DNA of 64,000 nt. It comes from a virus (lineage: Duplodnaviria; Caudoviricetes). Each line of letters begins with the position of its first letter. The stretch's first letter is position 1. Below are positions 738 to 50,725 of this stretch, in pieces. The position numbers and the translations under genes were made by a program. The notes under the pieces were generated by a model, which was not told the DNA's origin, searched no databases, and saw only the letters and a program-made list of their open reading frames with translations. Location: the IMG/VR virus record IMGVR_UViG_3300037466_003369, positions 8,276 to 72,275 of that record. The stretch is one strand, 5' to 3'.

Positions 738-902
738 ATGCCGAGCAAGTCTCCCGAGCAGCGGCGTCTGATGGCCGCCGCCGCGCATGATCCGAAGTTC
801 GCGGCCAAGGTCGGCGTGCCGCAGAAGGTGGCCAAGGAGTTCAACCGCGCCGACCAGCACGAGGGCCAGGATCGGAGCTTCCAGAGGATCAAGGCCCTCT
901 GA
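738..902 (+). CDS. Small 54-aa phage protein (MPSKSPEQRRLMAAAAHDPKFAAKVGVPQKVAKEF...)
   Basis: GGGAGA RBS and ATG at 738. TGA overlaps the portal ATG (TGATG). Below the ORF-track cutoff. Confidence 0.8.
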   Translation: MPSKSPEQRRLMAAAAHDPKFAAKVGVPQKVAKEFNRADQHEGQDRSFQRIKAL

Positions 903-3598
903 TGTGGCCCTTCCGGCGGGGGCCGGCGAAGCCGGCCGAACCCGCGAAGGCCGCCGAGCCGGCGCGCCCGGCCAAGCGGCGCATCAGCGACACCGCCATC
1001 GCCCGCGTCATGGAGCGGCGGCCGGGCGGCTTCATGCTGACGCCGCTGAGCGAGACCCCGCGCGTCGAGCGTCCTTTCGAGCCCGCCAAGCCGCTGACCA
1101 AGGACGCCCCGGAGATGGCCTTCGACTCCGGCGTCGAGGACGTCTTCGCGCAGCTCAACTCGGCGACCTACAACTTTGGCGAAGGCATCGGCTTCATGGG
1201 CTACGGCTACTTGGCCGAGCTTGCCCAGCGCCCCGAGTACCGCCGCGGATGCGAGGTCTTGGCGCGGGAGATGACCCGCCGCTGGATCAAGCTGACCTAC
1301 AACGGCGAGGAGGACGACATCGAGCCGGAGGCCGAGGGCGACGAGGAGGACGCCACGCCCGGCGAGGCCGACAAGGACGCCGAGCAACCTGAGCCCGAAG
1401 CGCAGAAGTCCGATGTCGATCCCGAACGGGGTGATCCGCCGGGGATCGGGCACAACAAGCCGCCGCGTCCGGCCCGGAGGGTCAAGCCCAGCGACGAGAA
1501 GCTGAAGCGGATCGAGGCGGAGCTGAAGCGCCTGAAGGTGCGCGAGGCGTTCCGTCGCGTGGCCGAACTGGACGGCGTCTTCGGCCGTGGCCACATCTAC
1601 CTGGACACCGGCGACACCGAAAAGCCGGATGAGCTGAAGACCCCGCTGACGGTCAGCAAGGTCAAGATCGGCCGGCGTAAGAAGCTGAAGCGCCTCGTCG
1701 TCGTCGAGCCGACCTGGACCTATCCGCAGAACTACGACAGTCGCGATCCGCTGAAGCCGGAGTTCTTCGAGCCGCAGAACTGGCTCGTGATGCAGAAGTC
1801 GGTCCACGCGAGCCGACTGCTGACCTTCGTGGGCCGCGAGGTCCCGGACATGTTGAAGCCGGCCTACTCGTTCGGCGGCCTCAGCCTGATCCAGATGGCC
1901 AAGCCGTACGTCGACAACTGGCTGCGCACCCGCCAGTCGGTCAGCGACATCCTGCACGCCTTCACCGTCTGGGTGGTGAAGACAGACCTCAACGACATCC
2001 TGAACGGCAGCGACGACGGCGATCAGGTCGTCCGGCGGGCCGAGCTGTTCAACCGGGTCCGCGACAACCGTGGCCTGATGATGGTCGACAAGGAGAGCGA
2101 GGACTTCGCCAACGTCGCGGCGCCGCTCGCCGGGCTCGATCATCTGCAGGCCCAGGCCCAGGAGCAGATGGCCAGCGTCTTCGCCATCCCGCTGGTGGTC
2201 CTGCTCGGCATCACGCCCTCCGGCCTGAACGCCTCCAGCGACGGCGAGATCAGGGTCTTCTACGACTTCATCCACGCCTTCCAGGAGCACCTGTTCGGCC
2301 ACGCGCTGCACATCATCCTGAAGATCGTGCAGCTCTCGCTGTTCGGGGAGATCGACGAGGACATCGGCTTCGAGTTCCTGCCCCTTTGGCAGCCGACCGA
2401 GACCGATCAGGCGACGATCCGCAAGACCAACGCCGACATCGACAAGGCCTACATCGACGGGGGCGTGCTCGATCCCTCCGAGGTCCGCGAGAAGATCGCC
2501 AACGACAAGGACAGCCCCTACCAGAACATCGACCCCGACGCCGTGCCGGAGCCGCCGCAACCGCCGGGCGGCGATCCCTTCGGCGCCGATCCGGATGGCG
2601 AGGGCGGCTCAGAGGACGATCCGGACAGTGGCTTCCCGCCCTCGTCCGGCGGCGGCGAGCGCCGGCCCGCGGTCCCCAAGGCCGGCGGCAACCCCAAGCC
2701 GCCCGAGCGCCGTCCGGCCGGCGGCGATCCCAAGCCCCCGCGGGCCCAGGACGCCGCCTTCAGGGAACAGGACCATCCCCGTGGCCAGCCGGGCAACGCC
2801 GGCCAGTTCGGCCCCGGTGGTGGAAAGTCTAAGACCGAGGCTCCGAAGCCGAAGTCCAAGGAGAAGGAAGCGGCCAAGGCGGCGCAGGAGCCCGCCAGCC
2901 CCAGGGAGCGTCCGCCGTTCTCCGAGGAGGAGCTGTCCGGGCTGCCGCACGTCGATGAGATCGATCAGCCGACCACGTCCTGGGAGGAGCTGAAGACCAA
3001 GGGCGAGGAGGGCCGCGCCGCCTTCGTCGAGGCGCTCTCCGTCGTGGCTGACAAGCTGAGGCTGCGGACCGACGTGACGCTGCCCGAGCAGTTGACGCCC
3101 GAGGACCTGGAGAGCGGCGACAACTTCCTGTTCGTGGCGCCGAACAAGTCCGAGGCCCGAGCGCGGGCCAAGATCGAGAGCGACTATGGCGGCAACTGGT
3201 CAAAGCTGCGCGACATGGTCCGCGCCTCGATCACCGTGTCGTCGATGGATGAGCTGCGGGCGGCTGTGATCGCCGCCGAGGACGCGGGCCTAGCCCTGGC
3301 GGCCAAGCCCAAGGACCGCTTCACCAAGCCGACGCCCGAGGGCTACCGCGATCTCAACACCCTTGTGCGGCTGCCCAACGGCATGGTGGCCGAGCTGCAG
3401 TTCCACCTGACGCCGATCATCGCGGCCAAGAACGAGGGCCACGTCCACTACGAGGCGCAGCAGCGCCTGACCCGCAAGAACGGCATGGAGGAGCCGGACG
3501 ACACGTGGTCGCTTGAGGACATCGAGCGGTTCACCCAGGCGCGCGAGCGGCAGCGTGAGCTGTACGGCGCGGCCTGGGAGAAGGCGACGAAGGCCTAG
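902..3598 (+). CDS. Portal protein (DUF1073-type) fused through a low-complexity linker to a C-terminal RelA/SpoT-like nucleotidyltransferase domain
   Basis: Position after terL; portal motifs HASRLLTF, GITPSGLNASSDGEIRVFYD, FEFLPLWQ. The C-terminal ~160 aa has KSxxRAxxK-DY, RDMVR, KDRFxKPxxxGYRDL, ELQFH and GHVHYE. Confidence 0.9.
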   Translation: MWPFRRGPAKPAEPAKAAEPARPAKRRISDTAIARVMERRPGGFMLTPLSETPRVERPFEPAKPLTKDAPEMAFDSGVEDVFAQLNSATYNFGEGIGFMGYGYLAELAQRPEYRRGCEVLAREMTRRWIKLTYNGEEDDIEPEAEGDEEDATPGEADKDAEQPEPEAQKSDVDPERGDPPGIGHNKPPRPARRVKPSDEKLKRIEAELKRLKVREAFRRVAELDGVFGRGHIYLDTGDTEKPDELKTPLTVSKVKIGRRKKLKRLVVVEPTWTYPQNYDSRDPLKPEFFEPQNWLVMQKSVHASRLLTFVGREVPDMLKPAYSFGGLSLIQMAKPYVDNWLRTRQSVSDILHAFTVWVVKTDLNDILNGSDDGDQVVRRAELFNRVRDNRGLMMVDKESEDFANVAAPLAGLDHLQAQAQEQMASVFAIPLVVLLGITPSGLNASSDGEIRVFYDFIHAFQEHLFGHALHIILKIVQLSLFGEIDEDIGFEFLPLWQPTETDQATIRKTNADIDKAYIDGGVLDPSEVREKIANDKDSPYQNIDPDAVPEPPQPPGGDPFGADPDGEGGSEDDPDSGFPPSSGGGERRPAVPKAGGNPKPPERRPAGGDPKPPRAQDAAFREQDHPRGQPGNAGQFGPGGGKSKTEAPKPKSKEKEAAKAAQEPASPRERPPFSEEELSGLPHVDEIDQPTTSWEELKTKGEEGRAAFVEALSVVADKLRLRTDVTLPEQLTPEDLESGDNFLFVAPNKSEARARAKIESDYGGNWSKLRDMVRASITVSSMDELRAAVIAAEDAGLALAAKPKDRFTKPTPEGYRDLNTLVRLPNGMVAELQFHLTPIIAAKNEGHVHYEAQQRLTRKNGMEEPDDTWSLEDIERFTQARERQRELYGAAWEKATKA

Positions 3599-3783
3599 TC
3601 GCCGCCCATCATCCTCTGGGCCTCGGCCTCGTCGATGATGTCGCCCCACTCGACGCCCTTGGGGACGTCGCCGGTGTAGGCCACGAACTTCTTCTCCGTG
3701 GGGGACCAGACCTCGCTGGGCCACGCGCGGGACCTCCCGCGGAACAGCGCCCCCTCGTTCTCGATGTAGATGAATTTGGCCAT
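3595..3783 (-). CDS. 62-aa protein convergent with the portal; candidate immunity/antitoxin
   Basis: GGAG RBS before ATG 3783. Stop overlaps the portal stop in a CTAG palindrome. Own promoter at 3862-3890. Confidence 0.75.
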   Translation of the reverse strand: MAKFIYIENEGALFRGRSRAWPSEVWSPTEKKFVAYTGDVPKGVEWGDIIDEAEAQRMMGGD

Positions 3784-3861
3784 CGTCTTCTCCGGTTTGG
3801 GACCTCCCTTGTGATGTGCGGGTGAGCGCGGCGCAACGCGCATTCGCGGGCCCACGCTCCT

Positions 3862-3890
3862 CATATAGGCGACCTTGAAACAAAAAGGAA
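3862..3890 (-). promoter_or_regulatory. Phage early-type sigma70-like promoter, TTCCTT-N17-TATATG
   Basis: CACTTCCTTTTTGTTTCAAGGTCGCCTATATG closely matches the promoter at 50516-50544 (CACTTCCTTTTTCTTTCAGGAGCGCCTATCTT). Confidence 0.75.
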
Positions 3891-3896
3891 GTGGAA

Positions 3897-3983
3897 ATGT
3901 TCCACACCCTCTGGATCATGGTCGCCGGCTGCATCGTCGGCTTCCAGGCCTTCGGATACCTGACCCTGTTCCGGGCGGCCTGA
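3897..3983 (+). CDS. Possible 28-aa membrane peptide (MFHTLWIMVAGCIVGFQAFGYLTLFRAA)
   Basis: Hydrophobic ORF that fills the gap before MuF. Confidence 0.4.
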   Translation: MFHTLWIMVAGCIVGFQAFGYLTLFRAA

Positions 3984-3987
3984 CCGG

Positions 3988-4788
3988 GTGTCCATCCACC
4001 ATCGCCAGCGACAGGTGATCCTGCCGCGGGTGGTCCCGAACGCGGGACTGCAGGCCTACTACCGCAAGCGCCTCGACCGGCTGATCGAGGCCATGCACGA
4101 CTCGGTCGCCTACTGGGTGGCGCAGGCCTATCGCGCCAATCCGCCGGAGATCGCCCAGGACGAGAGCCCGGCCATGGCCATGCGGCGGCTGATGCGCAAG
4201 CTGGCCAGTCGCTGGAACCGCGAGTTCGACAAGCTGGCCAGGAAGCTCTCGCCCGAGTTCGTGCGCCGCAACGGCCGGATGAGCGACACCCAGTTCATGG
4301 AGCACCTCAAGGCGGCCGGCTTCACCGTGGAATTCTCCGTCAGCCGGCAGGTCAACGACGTGATGCAGGCGGCCATCGGCGAGAACGTGGCGCTCATCAA
4401 GTCGATCCCGCAGCAGTACCTGACCCAGGTGGAGGGCATGGTCCTGCGCTCGGTGCAGGCCGGACGCGACCTCTCCACCCTGTCGAAGGACCTGCAGCAC
4501 CAGTACGGCGTCACGCGCCGCCGCGCGGCCTTCATTGCCAGGGATCAGAACAACAAGACCACCTCCGCGATCTATCGCGCTCGACAGCTCGAACTCGATA
4601 TCGACGAGGCCATCTGGCACCACAGCCACGCAGGCAAGACGCCGAGGCCTAGCCACGTCGCCAACAACGGCAAGACCTACAAGGTCTCCGAGGGCTGGTA
4701 CGACCCGGACCTGAAGAAGCGTATCTGGCCCGGCACGGAACCGAACTGCAGATGTACAGCCAAGTCGATCATTCGAGGGTTCATGTGA
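3988..4788 (+). CDS. Head morphogenesis protein MuF (SPP1 gp7 family)
   Basis: RAAFIARDQNNK, WHHSHAGKTPRPSH and PGTEPNCRC motifs; follows the portal. Confidence 0.9.
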   Translation: MSIHHRQRQVILPRVVPNAGLQAYYRKRLDRLIEAMHDSVAYWVAQAYRANPPEIAQDESPAMAMRRLMRKLASRWNREFDKLARKLSPEFVRRNGRMSDTQFMEHLKAAGFTVEFSVSRQVNDVMQAAIGENVALIKSIPQQYLTQVEGMVLRSVQAGRDLSTLSKDLQHQYGVTRRRAAFIARDQNNKTTSAIYRARQLELDIDEAIWHHSHAGKTPRPSHVANNGKTYKVSEGWYDPDLKKRIWPGTEPNCRCTAKSIIRGFM

Positions 4789-4958
4789 TGCCGGACGAGA
4801 GAGACGCGCCGATGTTCCTTTATCGCGGCCCGAAGGCGGACGACGACTGGACGCCGCCGACCTTCGGCATGGGCGTGGTCATCGGGGTGCTCGGCGGCCT
4901 CGTCGTCGCCGCCCTGATCAGCGCCGTCGTCACGCTGCCCTGGACCTACCTTGGCTGA
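4788..4958 (+). CDS. Small membrane protein
   Basis: ATG overlaps the MuF stop; one long hydrophobic segment. Confidence 0.6.
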
Positions 4959-6801
4959 CGGCGCCGGCGTCATGCTGCAGGCGCCGGGCAACCGGCTCCT
5001 CGTCCTGCGGCGTAGTCAGGAGAGCGATCATCCGGGGACCTACTGCTTCCCCGGCGGCGGCGTGGAGGAGGGCGAGACCTACGAGGACGCCGCGCGTCGC
5101 GAGCTGCACGAGGAGACCGGCTTCGACTACCAGGGGCCACTCGCGCAGGTCGACGACCGCGATGGCTTCGTCACCTTCCGCGCCGAGCTGCCCGAGGAAT
5201 TTGATCCCGAGCTGAACGACGAGCACACCGAGGCCCGCTGGATCGAGCCTGGCGAGCACGACGCGGAGCCGCTGCATCCCGGCGTCAGGGCCACCCTCAG
5301 TGAGATGGGCTTCGCCATGGATCAATCCATCCGCAAGCGCGCGCTCGCCTTCGACCGCGCCACGGTTCGCTCCTTCACCGTGGACGGCCGGCTGCAGGTC
5401 GAGCTGAACCCGATCTCCAAGGCCAACGTCTGCCCCTACTACGGCGAGGAGATTCCGGACCACGAGAAGCTCGGTCTGGACCCTAAGCGCGTCTACATGC
5501 TGCTGCGCGATCCGGAGGAACTGGCCAAGGCGGCGGAGACCTTCAATGGCGTCCCGCTGCTGCTGATCCACAAGCCCTCCACCGCGGACGAGCACCCGCG
5601 CGAGCTGACCATCGGGACCACCGGCACGGACGCCGCCTGGGAGGACCCGTACCTCAAAAACACCCTCGTGGTCTGGGACGCCGAGGGTATCGAGGCCATC
5701 GAATCCGACGAGCAGAAAGAGCTGTCGTCCGGCTACCGCTACCGCGCCGACATGACCCCCGGCGTGTTCAACGGCGAGAACTACGACGGGGTCATGCGGG
5801 ACATCGTCGGAAACCACGTCGCCCTCGTCGAGGAGGGCCGCGCAGGACCCGACGTTGTCGTTGGCGATTCCAAACCAAGGAACCTCATGATGAAGATCAA
5901 GACTGCCGCGCTGCCGTCTCGGAAGGCCCTGCTTGTCCAGGGCGCCGTGGCGGCGGTCCTCGCGCCGATGATCGCCCAGGATGCCAAGCTCATCGACCTG
6001 GGCGGGGTGTTCAAGGGCGTCAACCGGAAGAACTACGCCGCCCAGCGGGACAACATCGTCTCGCGCCTGAAGCTGGCCACCGACAAGCGTCTGGCCAAGG
6101 ACGCCGACTTGGAGGACGTGGTCGCCGTGATCGACGCCCTGAAGGGCGTCAACGGCGGCGACGCCGACGAGGACGACGTCACCATCGATGCCGATCTCGT
6201 GCCCGGAGCCGCCGACCCGGCCGATCCGGAGAAGACCAATCCGGGCGTCTCCGGCGAGGACGAGGAGGAGGGCGGCCACGAGGCCTTCATGGCCAAGCTG
6301 AAGGCCAAGCTGGACGACGCCACCTACGCCAAGGTGGTCTCGGCCATGTCCCCGTCCGCCGCCCCCGCGCAGGGCGCGACCGACGAGGAGAAAGACAAGA
6401 ACGAGGAGCCCGGCGCCGAGGACGAGGAGGGACCCGAGAAGAAGCCCGAATTCGTCTCCAAGGGCGCGATGGACAAGGCCATCAACGCGGCCTCCGCCAA
6501 GGCGGTCAAGGACACCATCACGCGCCTCGCCGCCGTCCGCGAGGCGGAGAACATCTGTCGCCCGCACATCGGCGAGCTGGCCATCGCCATGGACTCCGCG
6601 GAGGCCGTCTACAAGCACACGCTGCAGACGGTCTGCCCCGACCGCGACCTCACCGGCATCCACCCCAGCGCCTTCCGGGCCATGGTGGAGATGCTCCCCA
6701 CGGGCTCCGAGCCCAAGACCCCGCGGCTCGCCCAGGACGCCAAGAAGGCCAAGGCCTTCGAAGAGCGCTACCCCGGCGCCGACCGCATCAAGAGCCTTTA
6801 A
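4951..6801 (+). CDS. NUDIX hydrolase fused to DUF2213 (putative prohead protease/scaffold)
   Basis: Complete Nudix box [25 protein letters not shown]2213 motifs [17 protein letters not shown] and [12 protein letters not shown], then an acidic scaffold-like tail. Confidence 0.88.
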
Positions 6802-50515: not shown

Positions 50516-50544
50516 AAGATAGGCGCTCCTGAAAGAAAAAGGAA
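50516..50544 (-). promoter_or_regulatory. Early promoter TTCCTT-N17-TATCTT
   Basis: CACTTCCTTTTTCTTTCAGGAGCGCCTATCTT followed by GACTCGGAAGGAG. Confidence 0.78.
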
Positions 50545-50725
50545 GTGGCTTTTCACGCTTGAACGCATTTTCTTTTTCAGGCATCGTCTCGGCCATCGGA
50601 AGTGGTCCCTGACCATCACGCTATGCCGCGCTCGACGGTGTGATCGCCCCGCGAGGGGCCTCGAAGAGGCTGGAATCATCGAACCGAGGACCCGCAGTCG
50701 AGGCTCGGCTGCGGGTCTTGCGCAT

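Follow-up and report, generated by a model that had tools for sequence, protein, structure and literature searches.

Why should the portal protein of a phage end in a domain that resembles an alarmone synthetase? The question is raised by the gene at positions 902-3598 (plus strand) of a 64,000-nucleotide (nt) stretch of DNA, referred to here as the window, which represents bases 8276-72275 of the 72,275-base IMG/VR virus record IMGVR_UViG_3300037466_003369. In a single uninterrupted open reading frame (ORF) this gene encodes an 898-amino-acid (aa) protein in which a portal body is followed by a linker and by a domain of the RelA/SpoT type, and a small gene for a 62-aa protein runs towards it on the opposite strand. 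That a RelA/SpoT-type synthetase sits on the portal, as the original prediction (made from the letters of the sequence) had claimed, we regard as close to certain. As an explanation of the locus as a whole we favour, with modest confidence, a portal-borne enzyme of the Tas1/Apk type that would be silenced in the producing cell, released and delivered.

A portal protein with a C-terminal synthetase domain

The portal body (aa 66-569; 1097-2608, plus strand) matched phrog_146 over aa 66-569 with an expect value (E) of 5e-110, and PF06381 over aa 197-515 (E 4e-87); the latter score, 292.5 bits against a cut-off of 33.8, assigns it to Phage_portal_3 (the HI1409 family). Its neighbours, TerL, MuF, protease and major capsid protein, are those of the typical Phage_portal_3 gene order. 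PF06381 matched this ORF alone in the 72-kb genome, which thus has no second portal gene of that family, the search having covered PF06381 and no other portal family. In a tblastn comparison with 905 phage records that have a related portal, the alignment was confined to aa ~55-543 and none ran past ~543. Ahead of the PF06381 core lies an acidic low-complexity insertion rich in E, D, P and A (window 1300-1500; portal aa 136-200), around which both Pfam and the related portals are split in their alignment.

The Pro/Gly linker that had been predicted after the portal body is indeed there (aa ~570-679; 2609-2938, plus strand), with 21 P, 16 G and 13 A among 111 residues, and it gave no family match. 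Within it the stretch RAQDAAFREQDHPRGQPGNAGQF (aa 614-636; nt 2741-2809) includes the motif HPRGQPGNAGQF (2774-2809, plus strand), of the pattern HPR-x(1-9)-G-x-F, which recurs in relatives and forms the 5' edge of the putative cassette discussed below; this motif has a weak match (E 5e-4) to phrog_113, ‘portal protein’.

Across independent data sets, portal and synthetase domain are joined in one frame in no fewer than 17 distinct protein clusters, and contigs with the fused form include an NCBI contig from a metagenome-assembled genome (MAG; L003) and the IMG/VR contigs L004, L005, L022 and L025; an assembly artefact or false fusion was thus ruled out. No cultured phage of a 50,697-record collection has the fused form. 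Three-part head proteins, in which an InPase domain (PF18823) lies between portal and synthetase, were seen in P0014, P0016 and P0019. The effector had been placed on the portal rather than on MuF, and this was borne out: the MuF head-morphogenesis gene (3988-4788, plus strand; PF04233 E 5e-14, phrog_324 E 1e-82) is separate, ordinary and unfused, without a toxin extension.

The synthetase domain itself (aa 680-898, 219 aa; 2939-3595, plus strand) was placed by AlphaFold, Foldseek and a family profile run against the Protein Data Bank (PDB). With a 33-sequence alignment as input, AlphaFold gave a model with a mean predicted local distance difference test score (pLDDT) of 97.3 and a predicted template modelling score of 0.91. 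Foldseek returned for this model 68 PDB matches at E<=1e-3, and all top matches listed were synthetases of the RelA/SpoT homologue (RSH) family: Tas1, the type VI secretion effector of P. aeruginosa, came first (6ox6_A, E 2.7e-9; ~21% identical when structurally aligned), ahead of RelP, RelQ, Rel and RelA, with CapRel (7ztb_B) at rank 45 (E 3.8e-5). Against all PDB sequences the family profile likewise favoured Tas1 (E 5.8e-17, 65.6 bits) over the best (p)ppGpp synthetase, RelA (E 4e-4, 23.6 bits), and a search with the single sequence of the domain found Tas1 at E 4e-5. The exported synthetase SaEAS (8vx3) was also matched, both by profile and by fold; CapRel, FaRel2 and other tRNA-modifying toxic small alarmone synthetases (toxSAS) were absent from the PDB profile search at E<=1.

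RSH synthetases are recognised by five Syn motifs with a Mg-binding Asp in Syn2 and a catalytic Glu in Syn4, and the domain has all of these. The Syn1-like motif KSEARARAKIESDY (aa 749-762, with K749, R753 and K757; 3146-3187) aligns with KSRERAMQKINNDY of Tas1; it is followed on the same plus strand by Syn2-like LRDMVRAS (aa 769-776, with D771 and R774; 3206-3229), Syn3-like KDRFTKPTPEGYRDLN (aa 804-819, with K804, G814, Y815 and N819; 3311-3358), Syn4-like AELQFH (aa 830-835, with E831 and Q833; 3389-3406) and Syn5-like GHVHYE (aa 846-851, with H847 and Y850; 3437-3454). K749, K757, D771, R774, E831, Q833 and Y850 are invariant in 33 diverse relatives, R753 is nearly so, and G814, Y815, R816, D817 and H847 are near-invariant in the same alignment, as are K804 and N819 of the Syn3-like motif. 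The family is large: among 1.8 billion representative proteins, relatives of the domain were found in 1942 clusters at E<=1e-3 and in 725 at E<=1e-10.

Because Tas1 leads in both the profile and the fold searches, the domain is, as judged from sequence and predicted structure, a RelA/SpoT-fold pyrophosphokinase of the Tas1/Apk branch. The original prediction fares well by these results, in that every string it had quoted lies where it had been placed in ORF 902-3598, and the RelA/SpoT motifs it had recognised are the five located here, their catalytic residues invariant among the relatives. Its label, toxSAS-like, holds for the RSH-family synthetase fold but is better given as Tas1/Apk-like, and of the comparison that it had proposed, with PF04607 and with solved structures, AlphaFold and Foldseek upheld the fold while PF04607 stayed under its cut-off (see below). 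The same synthetase branch ends four giant proteins of 2,100-3,100 residues (P0032, P0099, P0116 and P0139), presumably polyvalent proteins.

A convergent partner gene and a putative cassette

The 62-aa gene (3595-3783, minus strand), for which we predict an inhibitor that blocks the active site, has a GGAG-type ribosome-binding site, and its stop overlaps that of the portal gene. With gp033 of Bordetella phage vB_BbrM_PHB04 (hereafter PHB04) its product shares 54% identity. We gathered 34 IMG/VR loci with the synthetase, using an 11-sequence alignment, and scanned them in six frames. A close synthetase and downstream sequence were both present in 23 loci, and in 21 of these the small gene is the immediate neighbour of the synthetase. 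The two genes converge in L038, whose synthetase is fused to a NUDIX domain, and in each of the six loci with a portal fusion (the window, L003, L004, L005, L022 and L025); in the stand-alone forms they are co-directional and an HD_4 hydrolase gene usually follows; the complete order of synthetase, small protein and HD_4 hydrolase was found in 14 stand-alone loci. On the MAG contig L003 independent gene calls include the small gene. Its family comprises at least 409 clusters, none of them named and none with a Pfam domain.

In one protein (P0125) the small protein is fused C-terminally to the synthetase, and three others (P0069, P0084 and P0110) have C-terminal extensions that resemble it by eye in the alignment. 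Two loci with a synthetase 38% identical to ours and with the HD_4 hydrolase have a gap of ~290 nt at the position of the partner (L023:7726-8018 and L024:4608-4888); a single-sequence search detected no partner homologue in these gaps, and a divergent partner may be there.

Co-folding of the synthetase domain with the 62-aa protein gave a predicted complex with a score of 0.93, as against 0.17 for the best control; this mark was attained by 58 of 80 solved complexes and by 2 of 110 mismatched pairs. Three runs agreed in at least 95% of contacts, with a partner pLDDT of at least 89. The predicted interface takes in D771, K804, Y815, D817, K843 and Y850, on the catalytic and acceptor side of the enzyme, and covers residues of Syn2, Syn3 and Syn5. 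The score may partly mirror likeness to the solved Tas1-Tis1 complex (6OX6) rather than binding of this particular copy.

Modelled alone (pLDDT 92), the small protein is a small beta-sheet with a C-terminal helix. It had no match in Pfam, PHROGs or NCBIfam, only a chance hit (E 1.5) in the PDB by sequence profile, no Foldseek match at E<=1e-3, and no detectable sequence similarity to Tis1, the immunity protein of Tas1. An exhaustive structural search ranked Tis1 (6ox6_B) third of 48,161 chains, in a weak match (Z 3.6, root-mean-square deviation 4.2 over 55 residues) on a par with those to Sm-like folds, which is suggestive, not proof. The small protein is probably an inhibitor of the Tis1/IapK type, IapK being the immunity protein of the MuF-borne synthetase Apk2, and we consider it likely that it inhibits the synthetase directly.

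Upstream of the inhibitor gene lies a 29-nt AT-rich motif, CACTTCCTTTTTnTTTCAnnnnCGCCTAT (3865-3893, minus strand), a candidate promoter or regulatory site. The window holds exactly two copies, where none is expected by chance; the second, found by sequence match (50519-50547, minus strand), stands ahead of a small gene in the replication gene block. Each copy lies ~30-80 nt upstream of a small gene starting ATGGCCAA. This arrangement is compatible with expression of the inhibitor outside the late operon.

The position of the synthetase varies among relatives. In the hit set, 17 portal fusions carry the pattern HPR-x(1-9)-G-x-F in the stretch that joins portal to synthetase; 11 proteins that have no portal carry it ahead of the synthetase. 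On the Logan contig L038 the synthetase of the closest relatives is part of a NUDIX fusion protein (P0029); next comes the convergent small gene, and after it a head protease without NUDIX. Homology between P0029 and the window portal protein begins at aa 615, just ahead of the motif, while the NUDIX part of P0029 matches the NUDIX domain of the window, which is there joined directly to the protease. From these homology boundaries, the block of motif, linker, synthetase and inverted inhibitor stands after the portal in the window and between NUDIX and protease in L038. In a FastTree phylogeny of 85 domains a single group of 23, well supported, held 15 of the 16 portal fusions together with a few unfused forms, and P0029 nested among the nearest relatives of the window domain.

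The HPR motif is a probable cassette junction motif. We propose tentatively, and with considerable doubt, that HPR motif, linker, synthetase and inverted inhibitor make up a mobile toxin-immunity cassette that would enter the C-termini of head-interior proteins (the portal here, NUDIX in L038, MuF or protease elsewhere). The HPR motif might then serve both as a recombination point and as a protease release site, like the pre-toxin junction of polymorphic toxins; twelve freed copies would be injected along with the DNA, and the brief pulse of (p)ppApp that they make would stall the host until early-made inhibitor ended it.

Predicted nucleotide product and possible delivery of the enzyme

Apk-type and RSH-type synthetases differ in a signature of RYT versus AVR in Syn2, GxN versus SxH in Syn3 and YH versus IR in Syn4 (PMC12226406). 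At these positions the synthetase domain has R-A-S, D-L-N and F-H. Its Syn2 R-x-S and Syn4 F-H represent the Apk pattern, and N819 occupies the position of the H of (p)ppGpp synthetases, matching the N of the Apk signature GxN. We lean slightly towards (p)ppApp as the product.

The C-termini of portal proteins face the capsid interior, and since they lie inside the capsid the enzyme would be packaged, with twelve copies built into every head. During virion production the small protein would cover the active site on its acceptor-nucleotide side and hold the enzyme inactive, much as Tas1 is silenced by Tis1 and Apk2 by IapK. Cleavage in or close to the HPR-motif linker, for which the head protease is a possible agent, would probably separate the enzyme from the portal, and the enzyme would exit with the DNA; in a new cell free of inhibitor it would transfer pyrophosphate from ATP to ATP or ADP, giving (p)ppApp, and this synthesis would drain ATP and stall host metabolism. 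The inhibitor gene, whose upstream motif is common to the replication module, would then turn the enzyme off. Release and passage form the weakest step of this scheme, and delivery into the next host, for which we argue by analogy, seems to us plausible but somewhat less probable than not.

Several observations weigh against the scheme. In Syn3 the domain has D-L-N, with D in place of the G of Apk2 G-x-N, and the signature is a weak predictor of the product, because swapping its residues left specificity unchanged (PMC12226406). The hydrolase linked to the stand-alone relatives matched Mesh1 (E 5e-36) far better than the (p)ppApp-specific Aph1 (7smg, E 6e-4), and to judge by its sequence such a Mesh1-like enzyme would fit (p)ppGpp and (p)ppApp alike; an HD_4 alarmone hydrolase was not found in this genome at E<=1. 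PF04607 scored only 13.5-15.1 bits (E 0.03-0.09) with our sequence, under the Pfam cut-off of 27, although the model under-represents this divergent branch: gp034 of PHB04, a relative 54% identical, reaches 30.6 bits. The 29-nt motif is not a recognisable sigma-70 promoter, a sigma-70 scan of 3400-4100 being empty, and one terminator-like hairpin on the minus strand overlaps part of it. Finally, the portal remains in the virion, so that a folded domain of 25 kDa would need both release and unfolding for passage through the channel, and we only infer its cleavage from the portal.

Other readings of the product have to be set beside (p)ppApp. If it were (p)ppGpp, or both nucleotides, the host would be put in a stringent-response-like state rather than drained of ATP via (p)ppApp. 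SaEAS, which makes both products (PMC12691689), was indeed among the matches, the hydrolase of the stand-alone relatives is nearest to the hydrolase domains of Mesh1 and Rel, whose substrate is (p)ppGpp, and Syn3 retains G-Y and departs from Apk2 G-x-N; we nevertheless judge this unlikely, since the profile puts Tas1 far ahead of any (p)ppGpp synthetase (65.6 versus 23.6 bits), Tas1 is first by fold as well, and Syn2, the N of Syn3 and the H of Syn4 follow the Apk pattern. Less probable again is a tRNA 3'-CCA pyrophosphokinase that would stop translation, like the toxSAS FaRel2, PhRel2 and CapRel: the fold is common to both and CapRel appears in the Foldseek list, but far under Tas1 and the small alarmone synthetases, and the closest characterised relative of the family makes a free nucleotide. 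Kurata and colleagues are said to have reported in 2021 that Mesh1-type hydrolases can reverse tRNA pyrophosphorylation, which we count in favour of a tRNA target. The remaining probability falls to some other product or to none. The domain might instead have decayed into an inactive passenger whose one role is structural, in the portal crown; this might account for the Pfam score under the cut-off, yet it is very improbable when the catalytic positions are invariant over 33 diverse relatives, the family extends to 725 clusters at E<=1e-10, the model is very confident and the cognate inhibitor gene has been kept.

The enzyme might also never be ejected, being active late in the producing cell or tethered in the head, with late host shutdown, poisoning of co-infecting phages that lack the inhibitor, or no post-assembly role as its outcome. 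The portal is a late structural gene whose product is established to stay in the virion, the cleavage site in it is one that we infer, and delivery has not been shown even for the MuF toxins (PMC10083569). On the other side, a dedicated inhibitor travels with the enzyme in nearly all close loci, which argues for harm in the producing cell, and the same cassette is found on other carriers in the capsid interior, namely NUDIX in L038 and MuF in the published Apk2 systems. On balance we think it rather unlikely that the enzyme stays behind.

Genomic setting, related systems and significance

The record is rated complete by CheckV and its genome has a G+C content of 67%. TerL, portal, MuF, head protease, cement protein, major capsid protein, neck and tail sheath make up the plus-strand half, and the phage is therefore a myovirus; thymidylate synthase, topoisomerase, helicase, DNA polymerase and methyltransferase make up the minus-strand half. 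No tyrosine integrase was found in the genome, serine integrases lying outside the search, and this complete 72-kb myovirus is probably a virulent phage. When species-representative bacterial genomes were scanned, just three MAG contigs (Oxalobacteraceae, Azospirillum and Acetobacteraceae) were found; the host is probably from the Proteobacteria.

Downstream of MuF, a NUDIX hydrolase (aa 1-125) is fused N-terminally to the head maturation protease of the DUF2213/Pa193_gp24 type (4951-6801, plus strand; PF00293 E 6e-21, PF09979 E 2e-50, phrog_2229 E 5e-134). This fusion probably loads a second enzyme into the procapsid, and phrog_15528 indicates that the same type of NUDIX can occupy the portal C-terminus in other phages. 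We considered the NUDIX domain as a dedicated (p)ppApp hydrolase and found no support for this: the solved structures nearest to it are those of generic enzymes of the NudI/MutT type, and insertion of the cassette is a better explanation of the P0029 fusion. A 30-codon ORF (3891-3983, plus strand), situated between the inhibitor gene and MuF and with AGGAAG ahead of it, encodes the very hydrophobic peptide MEMFHTLWIMVAGCIVGFQAFGYLTLFRAA, which may be a small membrane protein.

Two characterised systems are close to this locus. Tas1 (Apk1)-Tis1, the type VI (p)ppApp synthetase effector of P. aeruginosa with its immunity protein (6OX6), is the best match by sequence and by fold and likewise has its toxin domain at the C-terminus of a delivery module, with a small partner that here is predicted to lie over the active site; its carrier, however, is a PAAR domain, whereas here it is a phage portal. 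The MuF-Apk2-IapK(BcTis1)-Aph1 systems of Bacteroides caccae, S. pneumoniae SPNA45 and M. haemolytica (PMC10083569, PMC12226406) resemble it in that a phage head protein ends in an Apk-type synthetase. Ahmad et al. describe the gene for binding immunity as always present in these and that for the hydrolase as sometimes present, and a constant small partner with an occasional hydrolase is also what we find in this synthetase family; the stand-alone order of synthetase, small protein and HD_4 mirrors Apk2-IapK-Aph1.

In other respects our locus departs from MuF-Apk2. MuF is put at 1-3 copies per head, whereas the carrier here is the essential, 12-copy portal and MuF is free of toxin; the MuF-Apk2 carriers are temperate, unlike this phage without a tyrosine integrase; the inhibitor gene is inverted, with an upstream motif of its own; and the hydrolase of the relatives is Mesh1-like, not Aph1-like, with none in this genome. 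Because the carrier is neither PAAR (Apk1) nor MuF (Apk2) but a PF06381 portal, with MuF separate, the protein fits neither named Apk subfamily and would represent a third carrier class.

MuF-RelA toxins were described by Zhang et al. 2012 and Jamet et al. 2017, and their (p)ppApp activity and two immunities later (PMC10083569, PMC12226406). In the text of Iyer et al. 2017 (PMC5512222), RelA/SpoT domains are placed in phage polyvalent and MuF proteins, and InPase, 2H and PBECR domains are fused to portals, all of them proposed to be packaged and injected; P0014, P0016 and P0019 likewise join portal, InPase and synthetase. That text, its figures and supplement aside, holds no portal-RelA/SpoT fusion, small partner or HPR-motif cassette, and we found no description of such a fusion in published text, figures and supplements again aside. 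The portal Gp8 of phage T7 also interferes with host alarmone metabolism, by binding RelA and SpoT and suppressing (p)ppGpp synthesis (PMC13483052). Gp8 inhibits the host synthetases, however, which is the reverse of the logic of a portal with a synthetase attached, and the two mechanisms are unrelated.

PHB04 (NC_047861) was the sole cultured phage of the 50,697 records to match the domain, with 54% identity to the C-terminus of gp034. Its gene order is portal (gp035), synthetase (gp034), homologue of the 62-aa protein (gp033) and HD_4 hydrolase (gp032). It differs from the window in that gp034 is a separate protein of 493 aa with a differing N-terminal region, that all the genes are co-directional and that the hydrolase is present. 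While gp034 and gp033 are annotated as hypothetical proteins and gp032 as a metal-dependent phosphohydrolase, the three (L007:6179-8516) appear to be a Tas1-like synthetase together with its small partner and a Mesh1-like hydrolase, and a NinI-like phosphatase follows them.

What is new here is the portal as carrier of a known kind of phage-head toxin-immunity cargo, that of MuF-Apk2, in a new gene arrangement. Whether head toxins of the MuF-Apk2 type are packaged and injected, and what the phage gains from them, is a stated open question (PMC10083569). A synthetase borne on the portal, fixed at twelve per virion and at a defined location, would make packaging, cleavage and delivery easier to test than the low-copy MuF does, and PHB04 provides a cultured relative with an unfused version of the three-gene module. 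Our analysis also flags a short motif as a marker of cassette boundaries, and offers a predicted function for two unnamed families, the 62-aa inhibitor (at least 409 clusters) and this synthetase branch (~1,900 clusters).

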